A stretch of DNA of 64,000 nt from Gemmatimonadota bacterium. Its GTDB lineage: Bacteria; Gemmatimonadota; Gemmatimonadetes; Gemmatimonadales; GWC2-71-9. A program made the position numbers and the translations under genes. Of this stretch, positions 4,501 through 36,006 are shown piece after piece (the stretch's first letter is position 1; each line of letters begins with the position of its first letter). The notes beneath the pieces were generated by a model that was not told the DNA's origin, ran no database searches, and was given only the letters and a program-made list of their open reading frames with translations. The stretch covers positions 1,323 through 65,322 of the forward strand of contig JAJCZX010000024.1 in assembly GCA_029262195.1 (NCBI GenBank). The letters run 5' to 3'.

Positions 4501-5143
4501 GATCAAGCTCACAGGGTTCACGCACAACGCAACGGCTCTGACTCCCACCGTCCTGGGGGCGACCCCGGTCCATTGCGTCAACTTGGAATCACCCACCGTG
4601 CCGCCTAAGAAACTCGTGCCGCCGAAAACCGGGCCAACACAACTAAAAACAGCACCCGAACCCCAGGGAAGCGCCGCTGGCAATGCGGCTCCGTACGTGA
4701 CTACTTCTCCCAATTATGGTCTGGTATTTGACATGCCGCTCGGCACCATGGGTTCGTTAGCCGGAGTTCACGCGGCCCTCACGGCAAAAATGATACTTGC
4801 CTGGGGCCCCTCGCCGTTCTTGCCGGGAAGCGATGCGGCAGCGGTATTTGTGCAACTCCCGCAAGTCATGGGCGGAGTCGATGGTTTCAACCTGCAAGGT
4901 ATCCTGAAGACCACATTCGGCGACGCCAACTTGATGAAGATTAACAATGTTTCTGAAAGATCGGGGCCGGTCTACGCAGTTTTGTTCAACAACATCGCTT
5001 TGAGCGTGCTCGGTTACACCTTCCCGCCCGGAATCGTGACGGACTTTATGATTTTTGCCGGGGAGGACCCACCAAAGGTCGCTGGCGATACCAACCTGGC
5101 GTGGTTCCTTATGACACATTCCTCCAGTGGAGGTACCTCCTGA
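1532..5143 (+). CDS. Large hypothetical protein (1203 aa), first gene of the operon; no recognisable domain
   Basis: This is the track ORF. The start is TTG at 1532 or ATG at 1538. The stop TGA at 5141-5143 overlaps the next ATG (TGATG). No N-terminal signal peptide or TM segment is evident, and I find no catalytic motif I can name. Confidence 0.8.
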   Translation: MAMRRHLDRITAGLFLIGDGGGSPSVGTYCYYLMAVDSTGSGPTSVAQLWNDKPYVGWFLFLDEEIPVSDAPRFVATARLKLPSLPPGNSRAIVWLANADASSIDPNLTHLILQTALSLSLLHPINTQRQVKSSAGFSWWALALEFPIGAAVSLSQGVGGLAFGVSVKARDQSKFFLLCDDDQESTFFPPRGANVFIPIDGSTAGCVSVNAALKLPPLIQALGCGFRYVKTGSTPKIFDFPMYPDDAANNLLYAYNLRLHPLRPLDSDVTAFQFDLEGISQEAKNSRQLTSRAFLTPSGTAIEIVPDAVSGFAFNESVSASGHPFGYLSPVGLFKLVWVAGRPGLETTTNVKSEEELPQGSAQAIPVQYMPGVSGQEFITFQTGDVIGFEQGHPATSNGDSSGDVDPAFGVGEVLDATYTTSWFGALPMGERCPRYFAQPSASVYYGPAPHMSFPTAISAQLAEFGTPSLFPAVPYGYVTPADDDDADAYTHFENTVLTPGRSREILKDTSMGPRFLQPTPGGSPTSPVIGGTMTPQGLMVSVGDEGQWEQLLLARSPNDNESHLGFSGLSPGGEVSPRLGSALMRNELFLVISTGEALGEFEHEINMRGFTFNLDVQGAVGVETRPDTPAGSLQTIMIFKFGTGRSVSELVESPEHWVSTADFVGDTPSAIAAVQRAIRANIAVAAEGIGLPGKPFEYFNSIVNSQTWTGILALNCSIDARGMPADLQMLLGGVSGNLIAHHLGILINRVELGSPALEMLTSSIFGVIHYGEGQSDASPPNCPPSPWHYALENLTVLFANSNITFFNAKIGVMITQLFGREVELVSSNEGASPPEPNTIVINGQYQEQEGVATVRFSTDDDFDFAPVPTPGAIRLMEKVRVSSAALVPISSVADTKNPKIEDVMIGFQMAGEIWFAKDPFPNSDSLDLFSYGNGDVGLAYSGLSLDIGYQLDEDGAVPCSQKISFNSSAMVFTPSAASTRPGSLLASLPIKLTGFTHNATALTPTVLGATPVHCVNLESPTVPPKKLVPPKTGPTQLKTAPEPQGSAAGNAAPYVTTSPNYGLVFDMPLGTMGSLAGVHAALTAKMILAWGPSPFLPGSDAAAVFVQLPQVMGGVDGFNLQGILKTTFGDANLMKINNVSERSGPVYAVLFNNIALSVLGYTFPPGIVTDFMIFAGEDPPKVAGDTNLAWFLMTHSSSGGTS

Positions 5144-5427
5144 TGGTCTCCCCCAAAAAGACAGTCAACGGCCTAATGCAGTGGTTGAGCCGAACGCTGG
5201 GAGTCGTACTACCCACGCTGGCTTTTTTCAAAGGCTTTCCGTCCATGCAGGCTCTCTGGCGTGGAGCAATCTCGGGATTCCCTGACCCAAACAAGCCGTT
5301 CCCGTGGCGGGTTCCGGTTAAGGGCTCGTGGTCGGAGTTGTTCCCGGATGCCCCAAATTTGGATGTCACCGTCACCATCGTGGTGGATGAAAATGATGAA
5401 TCACAATCAGATCAAGAAGGGTGGTAA
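5143..5427 (+). CDS. Small hypothetical protein (94 aa)
   Basis: ATG at 5143 is in frame with track ORF 5101-5427. GGAGGT at 5130-5135 lies 8 nt upstream, and there is a 1-nt overlap with the upstream stop. The N-terminal part MVSPKKTVNGLMQWLSRTLGVVLPTLAFF is moderately hydrophobic. Confidence 0.6.
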   Translation: MVSPKKTVNGLMQWLSRTLGVVLPTLAFFKGFPSMQALWRGAISGFPDPNKPFPWRVPVKGSWSELFPDAPNLDVTVTIVVDENDESQSDQEGW

Positions 5428-5430
5428 CGC

Positions 5431-5895
5431 ATGAAATCACCGGATACCGGAACCAATGTCTCGATCGCGGCGCAGTTCGAGTATAAGGATGGGCAATCGT
5501 TCACGATTCAATCACAGGACATCCAGAAACTTAGCACTGGCGGTTGCGTCAACTTTTCTCTGGCGTCGCCGATGGTGGTTGGTACTCTCGAAGATTTCGC
5601 CGAATGGCTTGCGGGCGAGTTCGGTGTTGCGAATGCGCATACTGAAATCCATGATGCCCTTGCGAACATGCCGAGTTGGCTGGCCGATCTGGTGAATGAT
5701 TTTCTCTCGCCAACACTGACGATCACCGTACTTGATGTGACCATCTGTAAAGAGAAGGGTAAGGGGAAACCTAGCCTTGCTGGTTTTTCTTTCGGCGTCA
5801 CCTGGACCTATAGCCCGCCGAAACACATCGTAGGGCCTTTGTATTTCGACGGCATTGGAGCGTTGATAGAACGCAACGCTGGCGCGTCGAGTTAG
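5431..5895 (+). CDS. Hypothetical protein (154 aa); weak resemblance to the N-terminus of the following giant protein
   Basis: This is the track ORF, starting 3 nt after the previous stop. The segments SPMVVGTLEDFAEWLAGEFGV and LTITVLDVTI resemble SPIALTDLYEWVRQLLEQIGL and VTITLEPDITV in the first 150 aa of the next ORF. Confidence 0.7.
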   Translation: MKSPDTGTNVSIAAQFEYKDGQSFTIQSQDIQKLSTGGCVNFSLASPMVVGTLEDFAEWLAGEFGVANAHTEIHDALANMPSWLADLVNDFLSPTLTITVLDVTICKEKGKGKPSLAGFSFGVTWTYSPPKHIVGPLYFDGIGALIERNAGASS

Positions 5896-5908
5896 AGCTA
5901 AACTCGAC

Positions 5909-8900
5909 ATGTCGTTGCTGGAGAATCAGGACGCGACTGCTGGGGCCGTTACCAAGGTAACCGTCTCGTTGAACGGGGAGTTGGATTTTGGCTCGTCCCC
6001 GTTCAAAATAGCTTTGGAGGCGGTAGTCGCGGGCGGTCCGTTGGAAATAGGCTTGGTGTCACAGTCGCCTATTGCATTGACCGATTTGTACGAGTGGGTG
6101 CGGCAACTGCTCGAGCAGATCGGACTGGATCTACCTGAACCTGCGGCTCCCTGGAGCATGATCCTGGATCGAAACGTCAACGCGGCCATCTGGTTGCGCC
6201 CCGGGGCTGAAACTCGGGCCGCCTACCTGCAGTTGGACCTGTCTCCTCCTTTGCCCATCGGCGGCTCCAGAGACTTCCACGGCGTGACAATCACGCTTGA
6301 GCCGGACATCACCGTCGAAAGTATTTATCTGGGTTATGACGCTGCATCGGGCAAGGGAGTTGATTTCCGTATAAAGGTGAGTTCCCCCACCACGGGAGCG
6401 ACGAAATCGGGAGCTGGACTACTGACGGCGGGCGGGGAATCACTGGTGGCCAAAGACCCCCCGACTAAGACGCAAGTCGTCAGCTATCCGTTTCCTGTGC
6501 CTTCGCAAAAATCAGCATCGAAATTCAAATTGAAATACCTGGGGCTTGGACAGCGTGTCGGGCCTGATCCGCAAGTAAACCCAAATGGCGATCCGCTCGC
6601 GACGATCTTTGATCAGCTTGAGAGCGACCTGGCGACCAACGATCCCAAGGCGATCCTCGAGCAGGTCGCGGCGAATTTTTACAAGCCTGATCGTGACTGG
6701 TTCATAGCAGCAGACATAGAATTCCGGGGGTTTGAACTCCGTATCCTGTTCAACGACCCTGCCATGTATGGCCTGGAGATCACCGCTGGAGCGGGGACGG
6801 GGCTCGAAGGTTTGTTGTTCGAGATTCTTTATCAGAAACTTGGGCCGCACCTCGGCGTTTATTATGGCGCCCTGACGCTTCCAGACGTTTTGCGGAGAAT
6901 CCCGATCGATGGTGCTATTCTAATCCTTCCGTCGTTCTCGGTTTGGATATACACCAATGGTGACTTCCGAATCAACATTGGTTGGCCGCTTGGCCCCAAT
7001 TCGATAGGTCTACAGCTCGACGTGCTGCTCGGGCGAGCCGGATTGTACTTTGCGAAACTGAGGAGTGGCGATAACCCCGGCCATTCGCCCTCGGAGTCGT
7101 CGCCGGGGTACAACCCCATTCTGGAGTTTGGCCTCGCCGTGTCCCTGTCTGCCGAGGCTTCGTTGAACGCTAGCGTGTTAAGCGCCAGCATATCGGTCGA
7201 CTTTACGGCAACGTTCCAGGGGCTTTTGGCCTGGGGAGCGGCTCCAGCCTTGAAGCCTCCGCAACGACCACCCCCCCAGGGCGGGGCGATAACGAAGACT
7301 CCCGGGCACTACTGGTTTGCGGCTACCGCGACCCTGGTGGTATCGCTAAAGGGCGAAGTCAATTTCCGTATTATCAAAGTCACCGTCGCAATCAATTTTA
7401 CGGCGTCGGTCGGAGTCGCGCTTGAGACGGGTCACGCGGGCCTTGTGCAGATCGCTGCAGAGGTAACGGTCTCCGCTTCCATAAAGATCATATTCTTCAC
7501 CATACACTTCAGCTTCCACGCATCGGTGACGCACACTTTTACCATCGGTTCGGGCCCTCCAGCCAGCACCAAAGGACCCCTCGGCATGGGATCGGCCGGT
7601 GCGTTGTACAGGGCGTTCGAGGACAAGGTATTAGAAGATGTCGCGCTACATAGAGAGTCGTTGTCGGAGGGGCAGGAATCATTCTTTGAGCTGACACCCC
7701 TCCAATCGCCACCGATTCCGGTAACGGCGTTTTTCATTCTCCAACCTGCGGTTGTTTTCGATCAGACCGGCGTTGGACAGCTTGCTGCGGTTGCTTCGCT
7801 TGTCACTGAAGCGCCGGTGGCTCGTGCTGTCGGTGTTGCAAGCCCTGACACCATGACTCAGTACGAGCAATTGATACGGAAATATGTTGAATGGTTGTAT
7901 TGCGAGTTCACACCGGCGGGCGGTGCCACGCTTGCGCGGTTGCGCGCTTTGGCTGGTGCGCTCGGTTCAGGAAAGGCATCGCCATCGACGCCGGTGTTCG
8001 GTGGTTTCGCAGGATTTCGAGAACACCTTTTTGCGTTTTTTAACGCCTACATTAGCCTCGAGATACGCTCGTCTTCGAAACACGAAGCTGATCTACCCCC
8101 CGACGTCGCCGTCCTGCCAATGTTTGATGAGCTACAGCTGAGACGTCAGAAAGCGGATGGGACCGTACAGGTCATTCGCTTCAGCGAGTACGAAAAGACA
8201 CCAGCCAACTACCCGCTGGCGATTGATCTTTACTATGACCTGTTGACCGAAACGCAAACGTGGGCTGAGATGGGTTATTCGACGGCCGAAACGATTAGCC
8301 AACCTTCCCCCACCGTCGCGTCATTCCTTTCTGAGGACTATTTCCTGATGGTGGCTCGACAGGCCGTAAATCAACTCGTTGATCTGGCGGACAAAAGCGG
8401 CGCGATTCTCGAAAAGCAGCTGTTTTCAGATTTGCGAGGTACTGATGCGGACCGCAGGAGAGAATTGATTCATGCCCATGTCATGCGGACTTCCGGTGAT
8501 AACACGTTGCTGGAACTTTTGGATGAACTAGACTACGGGTCAATCGCCGGACTCGGGTCTCGGTCATTGCTGCAAGGCGTGCAACTTCCCATACCTAAAG
8601 ACGTTCCGAAGAATCCCACGCCGGAGAACATGCCCGGAGTGCCGACCGCCGGGATGTCGGTTTTGACGGGGCAACAATGGCTAGTACGTACGGGTGCCAC
8701 TGACGTGACGGCCGCCTTGATGGCGAATTCGAACGACCCCGGACGTGCTGACTGGATCCATTTCGACGGTTCGCTCGGGACAGCCGATGCTGAATTGGCG
8801 CTTCCGGCAGCGGCGCCATCCATCCCGGCCCCGTCATGGAGCGGTCCCCAAAGTAGCCCTGCTGACGTTGATGTTCTGTACCGAGGCCCCGAGTCCGAGG

Positions 8901-11900
8901 GAATTGACGGTGATATTGAAGTTGGCGCGATAAACACGTTGACAGCTTTTCCACTCTATGTAGCGCAAACCAATCGGACGTTGTGGACGGCAGAGTCCGC
9001 GCGCACCTTGCTGCCGCTCAACGCGGATCTGGGCATGTGGCCCTCAGGTTCCGGGGCGGTTGAGGTTTCCAATGTTGCGCCCGACGAGGAAGCCAATCCG
9101 CCGCTGCTTGAGGGGGCAGCGGTATTGACGATCGCGCTTTCGATCAACCAAATCGGTACGATTCACGATACAGACGTGGGCGCGACCAGCCCGCCGCCCG
9201 ATGCCGGAACTACTCTTGGCTCTCCTCCGGTGTTTGGCCCTGATATGGCACTTCCGTTTGTGTTCTCGATCAACGGGGCCGACGAAACGACACGTGATCT
9301 TATCGAGGATGCTCTGCAAAGTGCCGACTTCAACTCAGTTCGAATATCGATCGCCTATGCTGATCCGTCCTCCAATCAGATCTGTTCGGAGGAGTTGTCA
9401 CCGGATGTGATGCTGCTCAAAACCAACCTGTCGACCTTGAATCAGGCCTACGAGGTGAGTGCGCTGTGCGGTGAACGTATGCAGGTGTTGGGGGCGTTGC
9501 AGGGAGACGATGTGGCCACTATCGATGAAGCCGAGGCATTTCTCCGCTTATTATGGGAATGCAGTGTGGTGCATGCGTCCGGATACTATCTGTATTACCG
9601 GACCAGCGACGGACATCCGCTAGCGCCAGATGTGTTTACGGATGGTAAGGCATCGATCACGATAATCGTCGAGCCGACGACCCCGTCCCAAAACCTCATT
9701 CAGGTGGCGTCATACCAGAACTCAGTATGCGTGTTGGGCAACCACTCGGCCGACACCCTCTATATGGACATGTACGAAACCGGCGGAGGAAGGGTAATGC
9801 GCTATGGCCCAACCTATCCAGCGGGCAACTTTGGGGTGGCTTTGGAATGGACACATCCCGCGGAAGCGAGTCCGCCTCCCATGGTCCCAGTCGCTGAACT
9901 GTATCACCTCATTCAATATGCCATCGAAAAAACCGGCGGATACGGAGGGTCTGTCTGGAGCCTTCCCTTAACCCCCAATGACGCCCCGACTGACGGCGGA
10001 CTGGTTGTCAGCAACTATCAGGTTATTGTGCCGGTAGACCGGTTCCTTACAGGGTCGACGAATCGATATCAGGTGAACGGCCGGCCCGTGGATATCAAGT
10101 TCAGACTCGCCGACATGTTCGGGAACATCATACTGCATGATTCACCATTCACCTTTACGCCCTACTATCACGATCCACTGGTGCCACCTGACGAATGGCC
10201 GTCTTTTGTGATGAAGTACCGGGTTATGCCGGGCGGTCTCGGGGAAGCAATGATCGCGTTGCATTGTGATTTCCAGATCAATGGCATCGAACATAATAAA
10301 GATCCCAAGAGCATGTTGGCCGCCGCCGATTCGCGGTATGCACTTATTTATGACCAACTGACGGATCCAAATGTTTCAATGACGGCGTTCACGACTCTAG
10401 TGCCCTTGGCTGATGGTCCGCTGCAAGGGTCTCATTACCTGCACCAAACATTGATTGACGTCGTCAGCACAATACGCAATCGGTTACGTGACGCGATCGA
10501 CAGCAACAAGTTCGTACCGTACCAACGGAACATTGACATCTCTGTACCTATAAGCGCGGTTGGGCAACTTCCTCAGGATATCTTCCCGATTGGCGTGACG
10601 GTTGGGATGGAACGACTGGAAGGCGTGCCGCCGCATGTCTTGGAAAACCTGCCCAGTGCTGGCTCGGTCCAGTGTTCGATTCGACCCGATCTTGACGCCT
10701 TGCGAGACGCGGTGTCCCCTGGAACTCAGGAGAGCGGCATACACATTTTCGCGAACGATTTTGAGAGCGCCTACTTTGGCTTTGATGGGCGTCAGGGAGA
10801 GTTGATAGTTGCGCAGCGGCCCGCAGCCCAGAAAAGTGCGGGCTCGCCCTCCGATGCCAGAGGTGGCGGAATGGTTCTCGGTCACGCGCCTGCTGAGGAC
10901 CACGATCTTTGGGCGGTTCGCTGGAGTGACACCGCCGGTATTTCAGTTCGGTTTGGCGGTGCCCCAATCGACGATTTCGCTTACTTCGCGGTTCGTCCAA
11001 TTAGTACGAAACTGCAGAACCACGTGTTTAACGGCACCACGCTCCACACTGGCGTCGATGTCGATCAATGGGCTCGGGAGTTCCTTGATGCGGTGGATAC
11101 TTTCCTTGCCCCGGAGTATGCCGTGGGTATGGCGGTGCTCGACTCGATGAACCAAACGGATTACCTCGAGGCGATACTGGGTTCGAAAAGACAGCTGGCC
11201 TCGATTATACCAAACGGACTTGTCAACATCTTTGAGGAGGGTGCCAGAGGCGACATCGGTGGTGCTCGGGAAGTTTTGGAGCAGTCGTTGCTAAAAGAAC
11301 TGGGTTCCGCATATTCCATATCGACGGTGGTGCAGGCGCGTTCGGAGGTCACCACCTTCCCTGCCAGTTTATCGAGCCCCAACGGCTTCCCGCCTTCCTT
11401 CTACGGAGGAATAGTGTCTTCCGATTCGCTACAGTCCGACTCGGGAGTACCACCGAAGATTTCGAAACGCTACACGCTTTCGGGCGCCCGTTTGCAGATC
11501 GAAGACGGTTATCAATGGGCAGCCTTCATGGTGGGAACTGCTGATCCCGCGTTACAAACGGAACTGGTTCTCCCGTTAAACTATGCGATCAGTTACTTGC
11601 AGCACGATTTCCTGCCCGATGAAGAGTACCAGGGGTTTGTGCCTTCGTCCTGGCTGAAATTTGTTCTTACGAGGGAGTCGCTGGATTTACCGGTCACCGC
11701 CTCAAACCCTGCCGAGATCCCAATTCCATTGCGCGCGGACCCTCAAGCCCCCGCGTGCGTTAAGCAAACTGCTCAAGGCGTTCCAATAACTCCGAAAAAG
11801 ACGCCGTCCCCACCGGGGCCTGAAATCACTGCAGCCTTGGACTGGGAGTATCAGGCTGATATTAGGGTGAAGTGGGATCTCCACGACGAGCTCTTGATGA

Positions 11901-18051: not shown

Positions 18052-20561
18052 AGATTACTCTGCTGACGACCCGTCGTTTCGACCCTACCGCTATCTGGTT
18101 GGCCGAGCAATTCCGCATTGCGGGAATGGACCTAACTCCATCTAGGGTTCTCACGCCGAAAACAGATCTGGCCCTTTTCTGGAGTTATGATCGTACGCGA
18201 GCACGACGACAGATCCGGAATTTTTGCGAGGCCCGCGGGATTCCAATTCTAAATTCGCGTACGCTCGGCGTGTTGTCGGTTGCCAGGCGGTTGCAACGTG
18301 CCGGGATTCCGGTAGTGCCAACCATGGAGGTTGCGGATAGGTCGGCAGCCCGCGAGGTGTTGGGGGGTTGTCCCCCTCCGGTCGAATTGACTACCGCCTT
18401 CGGAGGTCGAGTTCGCGAGGTCGTGGACGCGGCGGACCTCGAAAATAAATGGGGTCCCCGACACGCCATTGTTCGCGCCGTTGACAAAGATATGGTGCGG
18501 CTCGCCGTTGTGGGCGGCGAAGTGCTAGGAGAAGCGACTCCTGCATGGACTCAGCTTGCACGCGCAGTCAGCGATGCACTAAATGTTGATTTTTGTGTGG
18601 TCCGTTTGTGCACTTTTCACGGGCAACCAACGGTTGTTTCCGTCAGCCACAGGCGTCCGGGTATTGGGTCGTTCCCCGGAGCTGGCGAAGCCATGATCCG
18701 CCTTGCAGAAAAGCAAAAAGCGAGTGAGAAGCCAGCTTGTGTTCGGGGCTTTCGAAAACCGATGGTGTCAATTGTTACCGGTATTCCGGAAGACGAGACA
18801 GTAGAGGCCATTCGTAGGGCATGTGTGAATCAGGGTCTTGAGCCTAGAGTCACGACCGAGGTTCAAGCCGACTCCGACGCGGCGTTCTTTTGGGGGCTTC
18901 ATTGGCGCCATCACCGGGACGTATGGCGTCACGCGGAAACCATCGGAATACCGACATTGGGTGGACCGTGGCGCTCGATTTCGGACCAACTGGGCGCACT
19001 ACGCCGTGCACGCCTGTTCGTCCCTGATTTTCGACCGGCCAGAGGCGCAGACAGTGCCGCTCGATGGGCTCGCAGAATTGGATATCCGGTTATGGTTGGC
19101 GAGGACGGTGACCCTGATCGACACAGCTGCCGCCTTGTGTTCCAGGAAAGCGAGCTGCGCATGGCGTGCGATCAGATTGAACCTCCGGTCCTGTTGCAGG
19201 GTCTCCGTTGGTCCTCCTCAACCTTGCTTCGGGCCTGGGTGGTAGGGGACTCCGTGTTAGCGGTGAGATCGCAACCACTCGCCGATCTTAGTCAGGGCTA
19301 CAGGGGCGTCGGATTGTGGAGCAGGGAGGAGGCGTCTCAAACAATAAAGGTTGCCGCCATCGCTGCCAGAAACGCTCTCGGTACAGGACCCTGTATTGTC
19401 GAGTTGCTCGATGAACCCGATGGGGTGACGGTGCTGCGTGTTCTTCATCGACGTGTTGCGTTGGAGGAGTTGCCGGACGAGGCGTCGGAAAAAATTCCAG
19501 TGATCATGGCATCTGAGATTGCGAACTTGTTGAAGGAACCGGATCGACCGTTGGCTTTTGCCCCTCCGTTGAAGGTGGTAATGGCCCGCCCTTACCGGCG
19601 ACAAAACCGAATGCGGATATGGTGTATTTCTGCTGTGTATCATGAACTGGCCCGCCGCGGACATGAGGTCGTCCATCTTTTTGGACGTTACGACGCTCAA
19701 AAAATCGACCAGGCTGATCTCGTATTACAGGATCCTTTGGCTACAATGGGCTGGCGCCGTAAGCCCAATCCGCTCAACCGGCGGCTCTTGAGCGAAACCA
19801 AGGTGCCGTGTCATCTTCTTCGCCATCACAGCGGTCGGGGCAGGGGCAAACTAGGGTCTCTTAGTTTGGCGCGCCGATTGGATCTGCCCCACCCGCGGGT
19901 TTACCGACCGCGTTCTGTACAGCAAGGCCATCTTCCGGTCATCATAAAACCGCTGCATGGCTCGCTGGGGCGGGGCATCTTTCGAGTGGATGATCTGGAT
20001 CAACTTCGTCGCCTGAATCCTCGGGGGAAGCTAGTCCACGAATTTATCGACTCGGACACCGGATATGCCGTGAGTGCTCGCGTCGTAACCGTACGAGACG
20101 AGGTTGTAGCCGCTGGGATCTTTTACAGTCGCGGCGCTGTTATTTCTAATCTTTCCCGCGGCGGTCGCGCGGTAGCTCTAACCGGACCCGGCGCCTCCGC
20201 GCGCCTGGGTACCGAGGCAGCTATGTTGCTGCGGCGGATCGGGATTGACCCCACGGCACCACGTGTGGTGCCCGCCAAATTGGTTGCCATGGCATCGAAG
20301 GTTGGTGCTCATCTTGCCACTCGTGGGGTTCAGATGGTGGGGCAGGACTATGTGGTAAACCGTGACGGACAGTGGTTCTTCCTCGAAGCGAACAGGTCTT
20401 TTGGGATCGCGTTGTTCAACGTTACCGATGGCGACGGATATCCAAGCACCAGGAAAGGATACCGTCTGGCCGGAACTGTCCTGGCGCAGGGATTCGAGAA
20501 AACTGTCGGGCGGGCTCCGGCAAAAACGACACGCCACTTCCGGCGGAGAGGAGGGACATGA
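18048..20561 (+). CDS. Protein of three tandem ATP-grasp-like modules (837 aa); the C-terminal module is RimK-like
   Basis: The start is ATG at 18048 (MKITLLTTRRF), which overlaps the upstream stop; the track ORF begins 48 nt earlier in the same frame. Module 3 reads LPVIIKPLHGSLGRGIFRVDD...LVHEFID...YAVSARVVTVRDEVVAAGIFYSRGAVISNLSRGGRAVAL...GQDYVVNRDGQWFFLEANRSFG. This matches the RimK pattern (DIRxxVVGDxVVAAxxRxxxxGxFRSNLHRGGxA). Modules 1 and 2 repeat the same layout (pre-ATP-grasp Rossmann-like start MKITLL / MVSIVTG / LKVVMAR, IPxL, ...VVGGEVLG / WVVGDSVLAV) but lack clear phosphate-binding motifs. Confidence 0.7.
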   Translation: MKITLLTTRRFDPTAIWLAEQFRIAGMDLTPSRVLTPKTDLALFWSYDRTRARRQIRNFCEARGIPILNSRTLGVLSVARRLQRAGIPVVPTMEVADRSAAREVLGGCPPPVELTTAFGGRVREVVDAADLENKWGPRHAIVRAVDKDMVRLAVVGGEVLGEATPAWTQLARAVSDALNVDFCVVRLCTFHGQPTVVSVSHRRPGIGSFPGAGEAMIRLAEKQKASEKPACVRGFRKPMVSIVTGIPEDETVEAIRRACVNQGLEPRVTTEVQADSDAAFFWGLHWRHHRDVWRHAETIGIPTLGGPWRSISDQLGALRRARLFVPDFRPARGADSAARWARRIGYPVMVGEDGDPDRHSCRLVFQESELRMACDQIEPPVLLQGLRWSSSTLLRAWVVGDSVLAVRSQPLADLSQGYRGVGLWSREEASQTIKVAAIAARNALGTGPCIVELLDEPDGVTVLRVLHRRVALEELPDEASEKIPVIMASEIANLLKEPDRPLAFAPPLKVVMARPYRRQNRMRIWCISAVYHELARRGHEVVHLFGRYDAQKIDQADLVLQDPLATMGWRRKPNPLNRRLLSETKVPCHLLRHHSGRGRGKLGSLSLARRLDLPHPRVYRPRSVQQGHLPVIIKPLHGSLGRGIFRVDDLDQLRRLNPRGKLVHEFIDSDTGYAVSARVVTVRDEVVAAGIFYSRGAVISNLSRGGRAVALTGPGASARLGTEAAMLLRRIGIDPTAPRVVPAKLVAMASKVGAHLATRGVQMVGQDYVVNRDGQWFFLEANRSFGIALFNVTDGDGYPSTRKGYRLAGTVLAQGFEKTVGRAPAKTTRHFRRRGGT

Positions 20562-22972
20562 AATCAGGGACTGGTGACATTTGGTCGCTTCGTATACCGG
20601 CGGATGAGTTAACCGACTCAGAGGATTTGAGAACGTGTGCGGAGATAACCGCTCCGGCCCTTTTGCTCTTGCTGGCGACCAGGCACGGCGGATCACTTTC
20701 CTTGCGTCGCGAGGCGAACGATGTAGTTCTGGAGTCTACGATACGTCTGTCCGAAGAACATCAGGCGTGCGTGGGGGGGACTGTTGCGTCGATAGTGAGC
20801 GCTGTTTTTAAGGACGTGTGTGCCGGCGGGCTTCCGCCATCGTTGCTTCGTCACCCCGAATTGGTCGCAAAAGACGGCAAGCGATTCGTTATCTCCATTG
20901 ATCGGGACGGCGGCGGGCCAGTGCTGGCGAGGGCTCGAAGGACTCTATTGCCAGCGGTAAACGTCGACGGAGTTAGAAGCCGGGTGTCGGCTCAACAGAC
21001 TGCAACAGTGCTTTTTCTCCACGCCGAAACTGCACTTCGCGAACTGGTAGACAGCTCCATATTCGAAGTCCTTCGTGCAGCCGTGCTCGGAGAATTGTCG
21101 CTCCCGGTCGATGAAGTGGGCGGTGGAGTGGTGTCTGCGCCGGAGGGTGGTGAGTGGGAAGGATATTGTCCAGAGGTGCCGTACCCGGAACAGCCCACCG
21201 TTCCTCCGGAAGAGGGAGAACCCGAACCGGAACCACAGGCCGAACCTGAAGCGGAAGCAGAACCAGAGGCAGAACCAGAACCCGAGCCCGAAGGCGAAAC
21301 TGAGCCGTGTGTCGCCCATCTCCTGGCGGACACCGACCGGGACGGGGCGATCGATTCGACGGATGAACTCGGCAAGGGCAATTGGACCTGGGGACCTCGG
21401 GGCCGGGGTGCCATCGTCTACGTCAACTGCGATGACGATATTCCACAGCGGAGGCCCGATCAGTTCGACATGGCAATCAACGGTCCGGCGGATCCAGCAG
21501 ACCTGGCACCACTGCAGGTGACCGGATGGCCCGACATGCCCGCAGGATGGCGTGCCGAGATTGCCCTGAGCAATATGAATTTCATTCGGATCTTTGATCG
21601 CCGGGCGGTGGGTGCCGCGCCGCTTGTCGGAGTTGGCATCCCGAACGCCGCAGCTCCGCTTGATATCTCGGCTGATCGCGTTCTGGGAGTGGAGGGAGTG
21701 AACTTCGCTAGCGATCCCAATACTCCACCGGAGACGGATATCATACTTCGTGTGTACGACGCCGTCGGCGATGTTCGTTGTTCGGATCGAATTCGGTTCC
21801 GAGTGGCTCCGTGGATCGCGCCGTGGAACGGCCGTCCGGCCGAACAGGTGTACATGGTAGACGCCCCGGCAAAACCGGGCACCCCTATCACGGCCGCCGC
21901 GCCGGTAATTGCAGCGGTTCGGGCCGCCATTGGCGCGCCTCTGTTAACAGTCATTCCACCAAACTATAAACGGCAACCCGCCGGAGATCCCGAAAGATTC
22001 CCTCAAGACTGGTTCCAATTCGGGTATACTCATGCTCCTTATGCGGCCCGCCTCCCGGTAGTCGCCGAATCTCGAGGTACGGTATCCAACCTGGTTGGAG
22101 GCACTCCCGGATTCCGGCGGACCTATGCTCAATGGTTTCTTCTGGGGAGGGACTTCGGGTGGGATTTGCCCGCTCGCGCGCCAGGCGGGGTTTCCTCTGG
22201 AGAGACATTCGGTAATCTGGAGGTGTCCCCTCCCGTAACCGTTGCCAGGAAGGAATACCCATTCGGGCGAATCGTCCACGGCAACAACATCAGTGCTGGG
22301 CTCAAGGCTCACCTCAATGCCCAGGTGGTGCAGGCACCGATTGAGATCAATACGTCCTGGTTGCGGGTTGGGCATGTGGACGAGGTGGTCGTTTTCATTC
22401 CTGTGAACAATGGTTTCCGAATGTTGATCGCCAGCACCCGCGCCGCTCTTGGAATTCTGAACCGGTTGAACGCAGCCGGAAATGGCGGTGCTACACTGTG
22501 CACGAACAGAATTGATGGGAATCGACGTCGACTTCAACGAACCGTTGCTCAAATGCTTGGAGCTCCGGGCTTTGTGCCACTTCAACAAGGATTTCAACGA
22601 TCCATTGACGCCATTCGCGCCGTTCTGGTGAGAGAACTGGGGCTATTGCCCAACCAAATTATTGAGGTTCCCATGTTGTTTCTACCCGTAGGGCGAACGG
22701 CAGCAGCATACACCGGGAATATGGTCAACCTTCAGGTTGTGGTAGCAGGAAACAATCGGCACCTCCTCATTCCAGAGCCCTTTGGCCCGCTGGTTGGCGG
22801 GGTTGATCAGTTCAAAGCGGATCTCCAGGGGAACCTTGCCAACCTCGGCGTGAATGAGACCTGGCTCGACACGTGGTACTCATATCACGTGCGGGAAGGT
22901 GAAATCCATTGTGGCACAAACGTTCGCCGCACTCCCTTAACGACCAGAGAATGGTGGCGGATGGTGCCATGA
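20558..22972 (+). CDS. Protein-arginine deiminase (animal-type PAD: PAD middle + catalytic domains) fused to a novel N-terminal domain and a Glu-Pro linker (804 aa)
   Basis: The start is ATG at 20558 (GGAGAGGAGGG upstream, ATGA overlap). The catalytic region reads [25 protein letters not shown] ... [26 protein letters not shown] ... [29 protein letters not shown]. As I recall it, human PAD4 reads [25 protein letters not shown] ... [26 protein letters not shown] ... [27 protein letters not shown]. The catalytic Cys (HCGTN) and the His/Asp pair (GHVDE) are present. The middle domain reads [37 protein letters not shown] and [21 protein letters not shown], which match PAD_M-type strings. Confidence 0.9.
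   Translation: [804 protein letters not shown]
21209..21307 (+). repeat. Degenerate GAR-CCN hexanucleotide tract encoding a (Glu-Pro/Ala)n linker in the PAD protein
   Basis: The DNA reads gaagagggagaacccgaaccggaaccacaggccgaacctgaagcggaagcagaaccagaggcagaaccagaacccgagcccgaaggcgaaactgagccg. It translates to [33 protein letters not shown]. Confidence 0.9.
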
Positions 22973-23628
22973 TAACTAATCAGAATTCTGTCGAACAGCT
23001 GATTCAGGCAGCCCTGGAAGCACCACGGAACGCGAGAACGCCATTGCGCGAAAAAGTGCTTGCTATCGGCCGCAGCGCCCTGCCCAAACTGAAGGTCGCC
23101 CTCAATCATGAAGATGCCCGGGTGCGGGTAATCGCGAGGGCGTGGGTCGGCTGGTTAAAAACACCTGAAGACTATGCTGCTATCGACCGCAGCTTCGATG
23201 TTCCGTCCGATTCCTGGGTTGCAAACGTTTCGAACAAACCGCCCAGCCGGGAGTCGGTGGCTTCCGGCCTGATGTGGCCTCCTACCGAAGTCTCAGGACT
23301 GATTGGGGAGATCCTAATGAACCGTGGAGACCGGCTTGAGAGATACCAACTTGAGGGATGCATAGCCGCACTGGGGCAACTCCATCAGGAAACGCCCTCC
23401 GAAGTAGTTGAAGATATTTTCCTCTCGTTGTCAGACCAACCGACGTCAAACCCCGTGCGGCAGCTACTGTTGCACGAGTTGGCCACTAACGCGCCCCCAA
23501 ATCGCGAGCGCCTTCGGATTCTCGCGGGTCGCGCCATCCCGCCCCGACAGGCACTGGCGATCAGCCTAATGCTCGAAGCGATTCCGGATGCATACGACAA
23601 TCCTTTTCCCGATTCAGGGGGGCGATGA
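22969..23628 (+). CDS. HEAT-like repeat protein (219 aa)
   Basis: The start is ATG at 22969 (ATGA overlap with the PAD stop), in frame with track ORF 22909-23628. LAIGRSALPKLKVALNHEDARVRVIARAWVGWL fits the PBS-lyase/HEAT-like repeat pattern (ALPxLxxALxDxDxxVRxxAAxALG), and a second weaker repeat lies near the C-terminus. Confidence 0.5.
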   Translation: MITNQNSVEQLIQAALEAPRNARTPLREKVLAIGRSALPKLKVALNHEDARVRVIARAWVGWLKTPEDYAAIDRSFDVPSDSWVANVSNKPPSRESVASGLMWPPTEVSGLIGEILMNRGDRLERYQLEGCIAALGQLHQETPSEVVEDIFLSLSDQPTSNPVRQLLLHELATNAPPNRERLRILAGRAIPPRQALAISLMLEAIPDAYDNPFPDSGGR

Positions 23629-25628
23629 TGCGGAAGCCTGGTGACGTCCCCGGAGACGGCTGGACCTTGTGTGTTCCAATCCCGGGCCTAATACCAGAGC
23701 CCGATCTGGGGCTGCTCGCGGAGATTGCCGCGCCCGCCTTACTGCTCTTGCTCACGACCGCCGACGAAGCAACGATTTCGCTACACTCCGACCAACGCGG
23801 AGTTTGTATTTCCCTCCCAGGTTTTCTCGACAGAGACCATGCGCGTTGTGTTGAACAAACGTTGCTGGCTATGATCGGAACCCTCATGAAAGGCTTGGCC
23901 GACGAGGGAGTCCCGCAAGCGCTATTGCGTTGTTCTGAGTTGGTTTCCTCTGGCGACCGGGGCTCCGTGAGTGTGCCCACCCATCGGGCTGGAGCATTGG
24001 TGCTGCGTGCCGGCAGGATGACACCGGTTGCCACTTGCGACGGAAAAGACCCGGCGCGTGTCGTGCCGGTGCAACAGGCGGCAACCGTTCTTTTTCTTTA
24101 TGCGGAATCGACCCTTCGCAAAGCCGTTACAACCCAGGAATTTGAAGTCCTTCGAGCCGCTCTTCTGGGCGAGCTCCCACTGCCCATCGATATTCTAGCC
24201 CCCCCCCAAAGGGTTCCCCAAAAAATCTTCAAGCAGGACGACGGTGGTTTTGACTACCCCGAGTATGAAAAGCACCCCGAGCCTGAATTGGATCTTGAAC
24301 CGGAGCCGGAGCCGGAGCCGGAGGCAGAACCTGAACCCGAACCGGAGGCTGAGGAAAAGTGCTGCGACCATGCCCTGCTGCCCCCCCTGGCCTACAGCCT
24401 GCCCACCTTTGCGGCTCGCGATTATGATGATATTGACGCGAAACTCGATAAGCTGAAAGAGGCGGGATTCTGCGTTCTCAGCCTTACGCCGACCTATCGA
24501 GTCACCACGAGGCTCATGAACTTTGTTTATGACAACAAGCGCCTTCGGGGGGTAGTACAGATTGATGATCAGGTGACACCGTCTAAACAGGTGCTCACGA
24601 ACGTTGTCCGAAAGGCAATTCGCCGCGGCTTCCATGTTCGGCTTGAGCCGCATGTCGATGCAGATATCGTACTTGCCGGAAATCAGGAGTATTACTGGCG
24701 GGCCCAATTGATGATCGATCCGCAACCCGCAGGACCCTATTTTTCGCTTGTGGTCCAAAGGTCACTTGAGATTTTTGAGGCGGTTAAAGATGAGCTACTC
24801 GGAGGTGTACCAGACTGTCACCCGTGCTTTTGGCTGACTATCGGTTCTGAGTTGGAAATGTCCACCGTTGCCTTGCCTGATAGCTGGCTCGCGGCGTTGA
24901 CCCAGGCTCGGCGCGAAAGAACTCGGATGGGTCTAGACGGCAGGTTGGCGTTGATCCACAAGGTGAACCACGACTTCAACGCCGCCCAAACGCTTCCCGG
25001 TGGTCAAACGCGCACCCGCATGGATTACTGGATTGACTTTGCCAACGGTCACAATCGTGAGATCAATGCTACGGCACCACTGCTTACGAGTGCAGCCCAG
25101 CTGCCGAAAATCGGACGGTATCTAGGTCAACTCGATCACATTGGGATTAGCTTCTATCCCGAACTGACCGGACCCGAACGACCGCCGCCCGAACGCATTC
25201 CAGGTGAGCAATGGCGTACCGATCCTACTCCCGCCCGAGTTTCTCGTATCGCCAGCCTTATGGCCCGGCGCTTCGACGGCATGCTCCATCGGCCTTTCCA
25301 GGGCTTGGGTCGGGTCCTCGAACTTTCGGAATGCGGCATTGGAAGTCCGAATCCTTCGATTCCCTGGGAGGCCTCTAATCCACGTTCGATGGACACCGCG
25401 GAAGGCCGTAACGTCAGGCTGCATTATATCCGCGCCCTCTTGGAATACTTGCGCAACAACAAACAGCGTTTTACTTCACCCAATGGTTGTCTTGAGTATT
25501 CACCGGTGACCTTCTGGACCGTAATGCAATTTGATTGGCTGGGCGTTTCTGCCGGCGGCAGGAGATTCCGCCACCCTGATGTTATTGATGAGGTTCGCCG
25601 GTACAATCGTGAGACATTTGACGATTAA
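23625..25628 (+). CDS. Two-part protein (667 aa): N-terminal domain paralogous to the PAD protein's N-domain, a Glu-Pro linker, and a C-terminal (beta/alpha)8 glycoside-hydrolase-like domain
   Basis: There is an ATGA overlap with the upstream stop. The N-domain strings [38 protein letters not shown] and [17 protein letters not shown] parallel [38 protein letters not shown] and [17 protein letters not shown] in the PAD protein. In the C-domain, the strand-end pattern [10 protein letters not shown] / [10 protein letters not shown] / [11 protein letters not shown] / HIGISFYPE / [10 protein letters not shown] resembles clan GH-A TIM barrels with two catalytic Glu. This is a tentative call. Confidence 0.7.
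   Translation: [667 protein letters not shown]
24276..24356 (+). repeat. GAR-CCN hexanucleotide tract encoding a (Glu-Pro)n linker in the hydrolase-like protein
   Basis: The DNA reads cccgagcctgaattggatcttgaaccggagccggagccggagccggaggcagaacctgaacccgaaccggaggctgaggaa. It translates to [27 protein letters not shown]. Confidence 0.9.
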
Positions 25629-25667: not shown

Positions 25668-27047
25668 ATGAAAAAAAAACGTAAACACAAAGGGTCGCGA
25701 CGCCTTGTCGGGGGAGTGGTGTCCTACGAAAGGTACACAGCGACCCTGGGACAGGTTCGGCTACACTACACACTGAATGATCGATACAAGTTCACCTGCG
25801 TTTATCGGATCCCTGGTTTTGATCCTGAGACGACCCCGGGCTGGGAGACTTTCGCATTCCATCTTGGATTGGCGCACTTTCCTGCCGTGTTCGCTGGATT
25901 TGCGCCTGCCTCCGTCGTGGTTAGAGCCGGTTTCCTCACCGCACCCCAATTGCGACAATGGACTACCTGGTATGAAGAAGGGTTAGCTGAGTTTTGTTTT
26001 AGAAACCACCTCCCATTCGAGGTGGTTTTAACCAGCGAAGGCAATTGCACCCACATCCCTTCGACGCAATCGTTGTCCGAAAGAGCTTTGGTTTTTCATG
26101 GGGGCGGAAAGGACTCCAGTGTCTCTGGGGCGTTCTTACGCGACCTGGGTTTTCCTCATACGTGGGTCCTCCTCGGTGGTTCACGGACCCAACGTTTTGC
26201 GACACGATCCGAGTTGCGTGGCGCACCAGCCGATCGCTGGATTGTGCGCCGCAACAAGAGCGCTCGGGTACGACGCCTGCGAGTGTTTCGGGGTCATCTA
26301 CCGTTGAACATGGAGCTTGCATTTCTCGGTGCGTTCCTCGCTGAGGTGCAGGGTTCCCGCTATGTCGTTGCATCCAACGAACGGAGTGCCAACGCCCCTA
26401 ACCTGGTGGTGGATGGACGCTCCATTAATCATCAATACAGCAAGAGTTTCGCCTTCGAGATGTCGTTCGATGCTTACAGTCGGGATTGGCTGAATCCGGA
26501 TACGCGGTATTTTAGTCTGCTGCGACCCCTGTTTGAGGTACAGATCTCCCGCCTGTTTGCCAGCATGTCCGAACTACACTACGGTTTCACGAGTTGCAAC
26601 AGAGGGGTGCGTCGAGGGCGCTGGTGTTGCCGTTGTGCCAAGTGCGCTTTTGTTTTTCTGGCTCTTTACCCGTGGATGGAAACAAAGCGTTTGACCTCCA
26701 TCTTTGGCCGGAACCTACTTGATCGGCCTCGATTGGTGGGCCTATACAGACGACTCACCGGAGTTCAGGGTTCCAAGCCATTTGAATGTGTCGGCACCGT
26801 TGAGGAAACCGCCGCCGCCATGTTGCTTGCGGCGCGCAACTCGGCTCCGCCTTTTGTTGTCCGCCATTTTATTTCCAATGAGCGGCAGATGCTCTCTTGC
26901 TCGATGCCCGAGGTGCAACAGCTGTACGATTCCTTTGACGACCAACACCTGCTGCCAGCCAAGTGGGAGGAGGGATTGCGAAAGTGGGTATCAAAACGTC
27001 TCTCTGGGGAAAGCGCTTCTCCTAAGCCTTACTTGTTCAGCGGATAG
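25668..27047 (+). CDS. PP-loop (adenine nucleotide alpha-hydrolase superfamily) ATP-pyrophosphatase-like protein with a C-terminal Cys cluster (459 aa); last gene of the operon
   Basis: LVFHGGGKDSSVSG matches the SGGxDS PP-loop motif. A later cluster reads SCNRGVRRGRWCCRCAKCAFVFLALYPW (CxxCxxC). The ORF starts 39 nt after the previous stop. The N-terminus MKKKRKHKG is encoded by an A9 run, so the exact start is uncertain. Confidence 0.65.
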   Translation: MKKKRKHKGSRRLVGGVVSYERYTATLGQVRLHYTLNDRYKFTCVYRIPGFDPETTPGWETFAFHLGLAHFPAVFAGFAPASVVVRAGFLTAPQLRQWTTWYEEGLAEFCFRNHLPFEVVLTSEGNCTHIPSTQSLSERALVFHGGGKDSSVSGAFLRDLGFPHTWVLLGGSRTQRFATRSELRGAPADRWIVRRNKSARVRRLRVFRGHLPLNMELAFLGAFLAEVQGSRYVVASNERSANAPNLVVDGRSINHQYSKSFAFEMSFDAYSRDWLNPDTRYFSLLRPLFEVQISRLFASMSELHYGFTSCNRGVRRGRWCCRCAKCAFVFLALYPWMETKRLTSIFGRNLLDRPRLVGLYRRLTGVQGSKPFECVGTVEETAAAMLLAARNSAPPFVVRHFISNERQMLSCSMPEVQQLYDSFDDQHLLPAKWEEGLRKWVSKRLSGESASPKPYLFSG

Positions 27048-32369: not shown

Positions 32370-32702
32370 ATGGGCAAAAATGCTGGCCTCGGCGAGTTCG
32401 AGCAACTGGTTCTCCTGGCTATCCTTCAATTAAAAGACGACGCAAATGCGCCTTCCATCGCGCAATGCCTGGAAGAGTCGGCGCAGCGCGAGGTGTCCCG
32501 GGGGGCGCTGTATTCTGCTCTTGACCGGCTCGAAAAAAAGGAATTCTTGACCTGGGCGGTGAAAGCCACTGCCGCTGGGGACCGAGGGCATCCGAAACGT
32601 AGATTCGAGGTAACCGAAGAAGGGAAGGGAGTCCTACGTAACTATCGGGCTGCGTTGCTAGAACTCTGGGATGGGCTCGAAGAAGTCTGGGTGGCACGAT
32701 GA
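32370..32702 (+). CDS. PadR-family transcriptional regulator (110 aa)
   Basis: MGKNAGLGEFEQLVLLAILQLKDDANAPSIAQCLEE...VSRGALYSALDRLEKKEFLTW is the typical PadR winged-helix N-terminus. ATG at 32370 is in frame with the longer track ORF 32271-32702. The stop overlaps the next start (ATGA). Confidence 0.85.
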   Translation: MGKNAGLGEFEQLVLLAILQLKDDANAPSIAQCLEESAQREVSRGALYSALDRLEKKEFLTWAVKATAAGDRGHPKRRFEVTEEGKGVLRNYRAALLELWDGLEEVWVAR

Positions 32703-35374: not shown

Positions 35375-35600
35375 ATCGGAATTTGGATTGGGATGCCTTC
35401 GACAACGATCGCTGAGTTGACTCGCAGGAACTTCCAATGGCAGTCGATCGAAAGTCTGACGGCGCGTCAGATCCCAATGGCATTCTGATTGTGCCTTTCC
35501 CAGATAAGGAGTAAGTCCGCAGGGTCGGATTAGCTCCGTGTCTTTGCACCACGAAAATCCCACTCAATCCCTGCGTGGAACTCGCTTGTTAACTTAAGGT

Positions 35601-35632
35601 ATACAATGTATTCACATAAGTATACATTGTAT
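35601..35632. promoter_or_regulatory. Inverted repeat; putative operator of the second PadR
   Basis: ATACAATGTAT (35601-35611) and ATACATTGTAT (35622-35632) are perfect 11-bp inverted arms separated by 10 nt. They lie 15-35 nt upstream of the candidate starts. Confidence 0.5.
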
Positions 35633-35646
35633 GCAGTTGTCGGCGA

Positions 35647-36006
35647 TTGACACAACTGAGGAGAAAGTTGACGAACAAGAACGATTTTCCGGGAGAGTTT
35701 GAGCAGATGGTGCTTCTCTCCATACTGCGGTTGGGAAATGACGCCACGGCGATCAAGATTAGAGGAGAATTGCAGCAGACTGCGGGTCGCGCCGTTTCGC
35801 GGGGGGCGCTTTATCGGACTCTGGACCGCATGGAGGCGAAAAGTTTTGTGGACTGGCGGACAGTGGAGCCGACCGAAGAACGGGGTGGTCACGCCCGCCG
35901 AGTTTATGTAGTGGAAAAAGCGGGAATAAAGACGTTGCGGGCGTCGCGAGAAGCTCTGGAAAATCTTTGGGACGGCCTCGGGTCAATCCTGGAGACCGGC
36001 AAATGA
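35647..36006 (+). CDS. PadR-family transcriptional regulator (119 aa, or 112 aa from TTG at 35668)
   Basis: FPGEFEQMVLLSILRLGNDATAIKIRGELQQ...VSRGALYRTLDRMEAKSFVDW is a PadR sequence. Both candidate starts are TTG, and GAGGAG precedes 35668. The stop overlaps the next ATG (ATGA). Confidence 0.8.
   Translation: MTQLRRKLTNKNDFPGEFEQMVLLSILRLGNDATAIKIRGELQQTAGRAVSRGALYRTLDRMEAKSFVDWRTVEPTEERGGHARRVYVVEKAGIKTLRASREALENLWDGLGSILETGK

Follow-up and report, generated by a model that had tools for sequence, protein, structure and literature searches.

What would two catalytically unrelated enzymes gain from carrying the same N-terminal domain? The question is raised by a 64,000-nucleotide stretch of a Gemmatimonadota contig (JAJCZX010000024.1; "the window" below means this whole stretch), in which a protein-arginine deiminase of the PADI type and a glycoside hydrolase (GH)-like enzyme both begin with a domain of about 190 residues, here called the N-domain, followed by an acidic, proline-rich (Glu-Pro)n linker. 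The original prediction, made from the letters of the DNA, saw in this arrangement a docking module with a rigid spacer. We find that the N-domain is a rare, previously undescribed mobile family, absent from Pfam, NCBIfam, the PDB and the searched literature. The reading we favour, to which we give somewhat less than an even chance, is that it is a portable non-catalytic recruitment handle through which various tailoring enzymes are guided to a single partner within a cytoplasmic modification pathway; both partner binding and the adaptor role are what we infer from the features that follow.

20558..22972, plus strand: PADI-type protein-arginine deiminase (PAD), 804 aa, with the N-domain in place of PAD_N (Pfam; alignment to human PAD1/PAD4)
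20558..21118, plus strand: N-domain copy 1, PAD residues 1–187 (AlphaFold2 and family profile, see below)
23625..25628, plus strand: 667-aa protein with N-domain copy 2, a Glu-Pro (EP) linker and, with reservations, a clan GH-A-like barrel (BLASTP, AlphaFold2, Foldseek)
23625..24197, plus strand: N-domain copy 2, residues 1–191 of the 667-aa protein (BLASTP and family profile)

That the first ~190 residues of the two enzymes are homologous, as had been proposed, is borne out by BLASTP, which aligns residues 6–185 of the PAD with residues 10–189 of the 667-aa protein at 41% identity with 4 gap positions (E 3e-22, composition-based statistics); this is the sole significant high-scoring segment pair, and no region outside the N-domain aligns. 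The peptide strings that had been quoted as evidence are all present, and the similarity lies far above the compositional background, the Smith–Waterman score being 298 against 33 ± 5.4 (maximum 67) in 1000 shuffles (z = 49). Since the aligned codons share only 50% nucleotide identity, the duplication is old and does not reflect recent gene conversion. There are exactly two copies in the window (tblastn and a family hidden Markov model, HMM). The family HMM matches copy 1 at 3.9e-61 and copy 2 at 1.2e-59, scores that are partly circular because both copies sit in the underlying 16-sequence alignment. The converse search gives independent support: a profile made solely of the two window copies retrieves the relatives at E 1e-16 to 8e-4.

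That profile was scored exhaustively against 1.84 billion representative proteins and gave 18 hits, three of which (P0007, P0014 and P0017) were judged false positives, as the matches consist of short multiple stretches within repetitive proteins. Among the remaining 15 are eight TTL fusions, three fusions to TTL plus RimK, one Stf0 sulfotransferase fusion, the GH-like protein of the window itself and two short open reading frames (ORFs). The suggestion that one module is shared by unrelated catalytic domains thus extends beyond the window, and the search for further carriers that the original prediction had called for delivered them. Eleven of the relatives reach the Pfam TTL family at 23.6–45.6 bits (cutoff 20.1). 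The N-domain lies N-terminal to the TTL module in the TTL relatives and at the C-terminal end in the Stf0 sulfotransferase fusion. One of the short ORFs, P0012 (9097–10816 of its locus, L001), at first sight a stand-alone N-domain, overlaps the upstream Stf0 sulfotransferase gene in another frame, and the products of both genes are 63–64% identical to the matching parts of the fused P0016; P0012 is probably a frameshifted or split fusion and not a true stand-alone domain.

The 16-sequence alignment (A2) is marked by the motifs AExxAPALLLLLG, LPxxLLRHPxLV, GRLT, AQQSLTxLFLYAE and LGExPLPxD, and both window copies match the family profile over its full length with these motifs. Its invariant positions are hydrophobic or proline (P33, L38, L154 and L182). 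No D, E, H, K, C or S, nor any other polar residue, is invariant among the 16 sequences; the best conserved polar positions are Q146 and T150, each in 15 of the 16. Conservation of this kind looks structural rather than catalytic. Eleven relatives (P0002–P0005, P0009–P0013, P0016 and P0018) carry an additional conserved N-terminal extension of ~100 residues, an "RWDL" strand followed by a GP-containing segment, which both window copies lack and for which the window has no separate ORF.

Is the domain known under another name? At E ≤ 10, Pfam finds no recurring family across all 16 members, including no ACT, RAM, PqqD, Pup_ligase or GCS2, so that no known regulatory or pro-domain family accounts for it. 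NCBIfam leaves the N-domain unmatched and returns compositional matches on the EP tract only; PDB sequence searches with the A1 and A2 profiles give nothing or noise (PAK4, E 0.11); BFVD contains no match; and the genome-contig and metagenome-contig scans detected no relatives. A word-indexed search of 5.8 billion proteins returned none with a single N-domain and only P0012 with the 16-sequence profile, a search in which leucine-run words probably saturate the candidate list. Neither the domain nor its gene cluster is described in the literature searched. With no entry in Pfam or NCBIfam, the N-domain merits a family definition of its own.

Modelled with AlphaFold2 from the 16-sequence alignment, the N-domain is predicted to be an alpha/beta domain of ~180 residues built from 8 strands and 5 helices (predicted local distance difference test, pLDDT, 90.2; predicted TM-score, pTM, 0.87), in which a beta-alpha-beta-beta-alpha arrangement is followed by four strands and then helices. 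The model is confident, and the domain would be expected to fold autonomously. Against the PDB, Foldseek gives it no match with E < 1e-3. High probability is reached by four PafA chains only (E 0.01–0.04, best 0.0096; probability 0.96–0.99; TMq 0.43–0.47), with YbdK/GCS2 next (TMq 0.49); all structural matches are weak, with TM-scores below 0.5. A reading of the ALLLLL motif as a signal peptide or membrane anchor was rejected, because in every relative the motif lies within the chain, as far in as about residue 365 in the sulfotransferase fusion, and in the model it is placed within a helix at pLDDT above 90.

The second shared element, the linker, is well defined in the DNA.

21167..21307, plus strand: acidic Pro-rich (Glu-Pro)n/(Glu-Ala)n tract of the PAD (six-frame EP scan; the whole linker is residues 186–255)
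24255..24356, plus strand: acidic (Glu-Pro)n tract of the 667-aa protein (six-frame EP scan; net charge −15)

The alternating Glu-Pro tracts of the two proteins read EPEPEPQAEPEAEAEPEAEPEPEPE and EPEPEPEPEAEPEPEPE. As had been noted, a (Glu-Pro)n tract encoded by degenerate hexamers follows each N-domain; Tandem Repeats Finder places the hexamer arrays at 21217–21292 and 24297–24354, the latter with 4 perfect CCGGAG units. The two are the only EP-rich tracts in all six frames of the 64 kb and the only acid-rich tracts among the 10 operon proteins. The PAD linker comprises 70 residues, 31% Glu and 23% Pro, with a net charge of −22; at 63–70 residues and −15 and −22, the window linkers are the sole long acidic EP tracts in the N-domain family. 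Every family member has a low-complexity linker after the domain. Those of 11 relatives are 18–62 residues long, rich in Pro, Arg and Ala, and of neutral to basic net charge (0 to +7), a comparison that does not support a rigid, distance-setting spacer as a trait of the family. That neither EP chemistry nor length is conserved speaks against a molecular ruler of fixed length and for a tether, flexible or extended, that is specific to the lineage. Taken at the sequence level, the pattern argues for a tether that is conserved as such, of which the (Glu-Pro)n composition would be one lineage-specific form.

What do the two linkers carry? The assignment of the first enzyme as a PAD holds up well.

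21320..22957, plus strand: PAD_M (residues 255–385) and PAD catalytic domain (residues 408–800) (Pfam; alignment to PDB 5hp5/1wd8)

Pfam PAD (PF03068) matches at E 3e-78 over 392 of 395 profile positions and PAD_M (PF08527) at E 1.2e-12 (48 bits, cutoff 24.8). Human PAD1 and PAD4 align from the start of PAD_M (their residues 121–142) to the C-terminus at E 2e-68, and the QD, GHVDE and HCGTN motifs, which we take to be the PAD active-site residues, are retained in comparison with human PAD1. Pfam finds no PAD_N in the window PAD; the N-domain and the 70-residue acidic linker fill that position. The ORF as a whole runs from 20372 to 22972 and holds the ATG at 20558, with GGAGAGGAGGG just upstream, and this ATG overlaps the preceding stop codon as ATGA.

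The second enzyme requires more caution.

24360..25625, plus strand: GH-like (beta/alpha)8 domain, apparently of clan GH-A type; Glu164 and Glu324, in domain numbering, are the catalytic candidates (AlphaFold2, Foldseek)

The 667-aa protein is, minus Met1, identical to P0001 in public NCBI/Logan data; the contig is public in NCBI and in Logan SRR15505516. Its C-terminal 422 residues have no match in Pfam, NCBIfam or PDB sequences, hence no CAZy family support, and just one homologue among 5.8 billion proteins (P0019, 293 aa, 27% identity). AlphaFold2, run on these two sequences, yields a low-confidence model (pLDDT 58, pTM 0.68) with an alternating strand/helix pattern. Searched against the PDB with Foldseek, it gives 137 matches at E < 1e-3, of which the best 50 are all glycoside hydrolases, led by the GH113 mannanase 4cd6 (E 2.7e-8) and followed by GH53 galactanase and GH5, with GH17 also listed. 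Glu164 and Glu324, which lie in GSELE and SECG, are invariant in P0019. The earlier label "hydrolase-like" can thus be refined to a clan GH-A-like glycosidase barrel, an assignment that we make with reservations since it rests on a low-confidence model. P0019 itself (1–1989 of L011) has no N-domain and lies directly downstream of a membrane GT2-like glycosyltransferase fragment, a neighbourhood consistent with a glycan-related role of the GH-like domain. Judged by their residues, with the PAD motifs and the two candidate GH glutamates intact, both fused enzymes look active.

The two genes belong to a same-strand array that extends from 1532 to 27047 of the window and includes the following.

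1532..13042, plus strand: giant ORFs of 1203 aa (1532–5143) and 2377 aa (5909–13042) at the head of the array, candidate partners
13042..15693, plus strand: 883-aa protein with two glycosyltransferase family 2 (GT2) modules, one with Glyco_transf_7C (Pfam); this type of glycosyltransferase recurs in related loci
16876..18051, plus strand: TTL-family ATP-grasp ligase, 391 aa, without N-domain (Pfam TTL E 1.5e-14, 54 bits against the same cutoff of 20.1)
18048..20561, plus strand: multi-module ATP-grasp (RimK-like) protein (Pfam RimK, NCBIfam rimK_fam), translationally coupled to the TTL and the PAD
22969..23628, plus strand: alpha-helical, HEAT-like protein of 219 aa, encoded between the N-domain genes and likewise a proposed candidate partner (weak Pfam HEAT_2, E 0.006, below cutoff), with ATGA at both ends
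25668..27047, plus strand: MurL-like paralogue of the terminal L-Glu to D-Glu epimerase family, the last gene of the operon (NCBIfam NF041275)

From the TTL through the ATP-grasp protein, the PAD and the HEAT-like protein to the GH-like protein (16876–25628), each gene is joined to the next by an ATGA start/stop overlap, four in a row, a coupling consistent with co-assembly. The window TTL is orthologous to the TTL part of the 11 N-domain fusions (29–36% identity over ~300–400 aa) and shows no N-domain remnant upstream. As this ortholog lacks the domain, the N-domain has shifted from one enzyme to another within gene clusters of a single kind. The ATP-grasp protein probably starts at ATG 18048 rather than GTG 18000, and its N-terminal module resembles the RimK module of P0005 and P0013. 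The MurL-like protein matches NF041275 at E 5.6e-67 (226 bits against an equivalog cutoff of 700), with MurL_N and MurL_epimerase_C in precomputed annotation. MurL is the family of the UDP-MurNAc-L-Ala-L-Glu epimerase, and its paralogue here, which closes an operon rich in enzymes of the Glu-ligase type, may act as an epimerase on ligated glutamates. The 1203-aa and 2377-aa proteins match nothing in Pfam, NCBIfam or PDB sequences, have no acidic tracts and no obvious signal peptide, and are singletons in public data.

In the gap between the GT2 and TTL genes, a small ORF (15701–16186) starts with MTSVVGLLGMVGFMIAAWSC, which resembles a lipoprotein signal peptide with a lipobox Cys, and is followed by a 145-aa ORF (16201–16638) without a family. 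Further along the window, 32699–38639 encodes two duplicated MacB/FtsX permeases of the ADOP family (TIGR03434, 750 bits and 588 bits, cutoff 622), a family that would suggest an Acidobacteriota-like host.

Loci elsewhere that contain N-domain genes show recurrent neighbours. GT2 plus Glyco_transf_7C genes adjoin N-domain genes in L001, L003, L006 and L008, and a second TTL does so in L003 and L009. The commonest neighbour, in L001, L003, L009 and L012, is a sedolisin-like peptidase of family S53 whose C-terminus carries a long Pro-rich repeat. Together, these neighbours point to macromolecular tailoring.

L001 6828–8972, L003 10755–13064, L009 4679–6982 and L012 3455–4207: S53 peptidase genes (Pro-kumamolisin activation domain plus subtilase fold)
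L009 9179–9922, L006 1900–2598 and L001 11196–11564: conserved protein of 232–247 aa, encoded directly downstream of the N-domain genes and marked by an invariant H-T-[DE] ... H motif

Among the repeats of the S53 tails are (PPVT/PPVK)n and (PPVK)n(PPVE)n, as well as (HTTRPP)n preceded by an acidic EGEQ/AEPEAEP stretch. In L001 a Thr/Lys-rich tail accompanies sulfotransferases and GT2 with no TTL, in L009 a Glu-rich tail accompanies two TTLs, and in L003 an acidic plus Thr-rich tail accompanies TTL-RimK and GT2, such that tail composition seems, in these three loci only, to track which tailoring enzymes are present. The 232–247-aa protein is like the 2-oxoglutarate (2OG)/Fe(II) oxygenases, its match to HalD being weak only. 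Neither this protein nor any other conserved neighbour of the related loci, apart from the GT2 and TTL types, was found in the window; the HEAT-like protein was considered as its counterpart and rejected (hhalign probability 0.2%).

Two of these loci contain other genes worth recording. On the minus strand, L009 234–4466 encodes a YcaO/ThiF-like/nitroreductase set divergent from the S53 and TTL genes, and a 298-aa protein of L009 that ends in CCCCCCCCWGSCSSCS resembles a thiazole/oxazole-type precursor, with a very long leader, of the peptides that are synthesized by ribosomes and then modified post-translationally (RiPPs). L004 4773–9433, beside the N-domain–TTL gene P0002, encodes a 707-aa protein that combines a weakly kinase-like N-terminus with a very long stretch rich in Pro and Ala and a membrane anchor at its C-terminus, as well as an 827-aa Ala/His/Gly-rich protein, FHA-domain proteins, a pyridoxal phosphate-dependent decarboxylase and ComA.

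How, then, might the N-domain work? As a recruitment handle, it would tether each fused tailoring enzyme (the PAD and the GH-A-like glycosidase here; TTL-like enzymes, TTL plus RimK and the Stf0 sulfotransferase elsewhere) to a common partner of a cytoplasmic multi-enzyme pathway. The partner could be a substrate protein, a glycoprotein or a scaffold, and the low-complexity linker would give the catalytic domain access to sites on the partner held by the N-domain. Several observations weigh against this reading. The family has only ~15 members, mostly on short metagenome contigs, so that the neighbour statistics are anecdotal. Two N-domain genes occur together only in the window and in L009, where they are on two TTL paralogues; because most loci show a single N-domain gene in the DNA available, the description of the domain as shared by several enzymes holds for these two loci only. 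The S53 peptidase, so frequent elsewhere, is missing from the window. Because the ~100-residue extension of the relatives is missing as well, the window N-domains may not be functionally equivalent to them and may differ in what they do. Since the only structural matches, PafA and YbdK, are enzymes, the domain may also have a cryptic catalytic or ligand-binding role.

One alternative is that the N-domain binds not a substrate but itself, forming homo- or hetero-oligomers that join the PAD and the GH-like enzyme, or TTL subunits elsewhere, in one complex. The presence of two copies in one translationally coupled operon, and on the two TTL paralogues of L009, would fit, as would the fact that residues 1–11 and F169-E170-V171 are conserved only in the window pair. 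Pairs within one genome, the window pair (41%) among them, are also slightly more alike (38–41% identity overall) than pairs between genomes (25–34%), but lineage-specific duplication explains this equally well; moreover, the predominance of single-copy loci means that heterodimerization is not the general role, although homodimers may form, and on the whole we consider oligomerization unlikely. Could the domain instead be an ACT-like allosteric sensor that responds to a shared metabolite, for instance glutamate, ATP or a nucleotide sugar, and imposes the same regulation on every enzyme to which it is fused? Its element order starts with beta-alpha-beta-beta-alpha-beta, which is typical of ferredoxin-like and ACT-like ligand-binding folds, its best structural matches are nucleotide- and amino acid-binding ligases, and the polar residues Q146, T150, E157 and R127 are well conserved. 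However, neither ACT or RAM nor another ligand-binding Pfam family appears in any member, a long disordered linker is unusual for allosteric coupling, and the domain occurs at either end of its partner enzyme, all of which makes a sensor quite improbable. The same structural matches prompt the thought of a cut-down PafA/GCS2 (glutamine synthetase-like) ligase that catalyzes or assists glutamyl ligation, a theme well suited to an operon full of Glu ligases plus a Glu epimerase and to a search in which PafA and then YbdK/GCS2 come out on top. Yet the N-domain does not come to half the size of the cradle of such ligases and has no invariant acidic or basic residue, no Pup_ligase or GCS2 match and no PDB sequence match, and none of its structural matches reaches a TM-score of 0.5 or E < 1e-3; we give this idea hardly any credence.

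It is also conceivable that the similarity carries no shared function, the N-domain being a stabilizing or pro-domain-like cap left by a relic duplication and the EP tracts a neutral product of replication slippage. Perfect hexamer repeats such as those in the EP arrays are typical of slippage, and linker composition is unconserved in the family. The domain itself tells otherwise: it is kept at 25–41% identity on five kinds of enzyme in loci that span 50–76% GC, a range from which we conclude that the hosts are diverse, and retention across such diverse hosts and enzymes implies selection on the N-domain. With intact motifs in both window copies and a confident fold model besides, a functionless relic appears very improbable. 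A more speculative proposal, and to our minds a long shot, is that the operon and its relatives form a bacterial analogue of the tubulin-tail code, in which TTL/RimK ligases and the MurL-like epimerase add and epimerise glutamates on Glu-rich, Pro-rich tracts, with the N-domain marking or recruiting the proteins concerned. The acceptors would be the EP linkers in the window, its operon offering no other acidic tracts, and the (PPVE)n or acidic S53 tails in related loci. Of all these readings, the recruitment handle has the best support.

Shared recruitment domains explain how unrelated tailoring enzymes come to work on a single substrate, for the discovery of which such domains are the best starting point. 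The N-domain links five chemistries, namely citrullination, TTL/RimK-type amino acid ligation, sulfation, glycosyl transfer and glycoside hydrolysis. To our knowledge, no physiological substrate is established for bacterial PADI-type or TTL-type enzymes, and none was found in the literature searched. If the partner of the N-domain were pulled down, it would provide the first native substrate for bacterial PADI and for bacterial TTL-like ligases, and would define a new, very rare modification system.

How does this arrangement compare with known systems? Alternating Glu-Pro tracts take extended, polyproline II-like conformations. The window tracts, with their GAR-CCN hexamers, share the Glu-Pro alternation of the (Glu-Pro)n-(Lys-Pro)n rod of TonB, named in the original prediction, and of the EP repeats of procyclin, and the sole Pfam match to the EP tracts is a compositional one to Trypan_PARP. 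They differ from TonB in having no Lys-Pro half, and from both in that the window proteins, which occur among ATP-dependent cytoplasmic enzymes, lack both a signal peptide and a membrane anchor. As the EP tract is, moreover, not conserved in the N-domain family, the likeness is compositional only.

In position, the N-domain of the window PAD corresponds to PAD_N, which likewise precedes PAD_M. Bacterial PADIs mostly lack PAD_N, one cyanobacterial clade excepted, and the PAD_N of metazoan and some cyanobacterial PADIs is a cupredoxin-type domain (PMC8826395). The window N-domain differs from it in its mixed alpha/beta model and in the 70-residue acidic linker that separates it from PAD_M. Structurally, the closest and only consistent matches are PafA/Dop and YbdK/GCS2, which act on glutamate carboxylates, as do the TTL- and RimK-type ligases that adjoin the N-domain; the match is partial (TMq 0.43–0.49, E ≥ 0.0096), and the N-domain is under half their size and lacks conserved catalytic acidic residues. 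Eukaryotic TTL-like glutamylases have accessory substrate-binding domains appended to the TTL core, and the N-domain, situated N-terminal to the TTL module in its relatives, plausibly positions the core on a protein substrate in a similar manner. No homology to those accessory domains was detected, and the N-domain is found on the PAD, the GH-like enzyme and the sulfotransferase as well.

The closest functional analogue is the RiPP recognition element (RRE). Within a gene cluster, this small, non-catalytic, PqqD-like domain is attached to, or encoded beside, tailoring enzymes of unrelated chemistry, all of which it directs to a common substrate; a cluster may contain several copies, and the domain may also stand alone. 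The N-domain is not an RRE by descent as far as the comparisons reach: none of its 16 members matches PqqD, no RRE-containing structure is among the 50 Foldseek hits listed, and with ~180 residues it is about twice as long as the ~90-residue winged helix of the RRE and has a different order of elements. No leader-peptide-type precursor was identified in the window. The N-domain, its fusion partners and its cluster are undescribed in the databases and literature searched; a shared adaptor on tailoring enzymes, the role in which we would place the domain, is a known concept.

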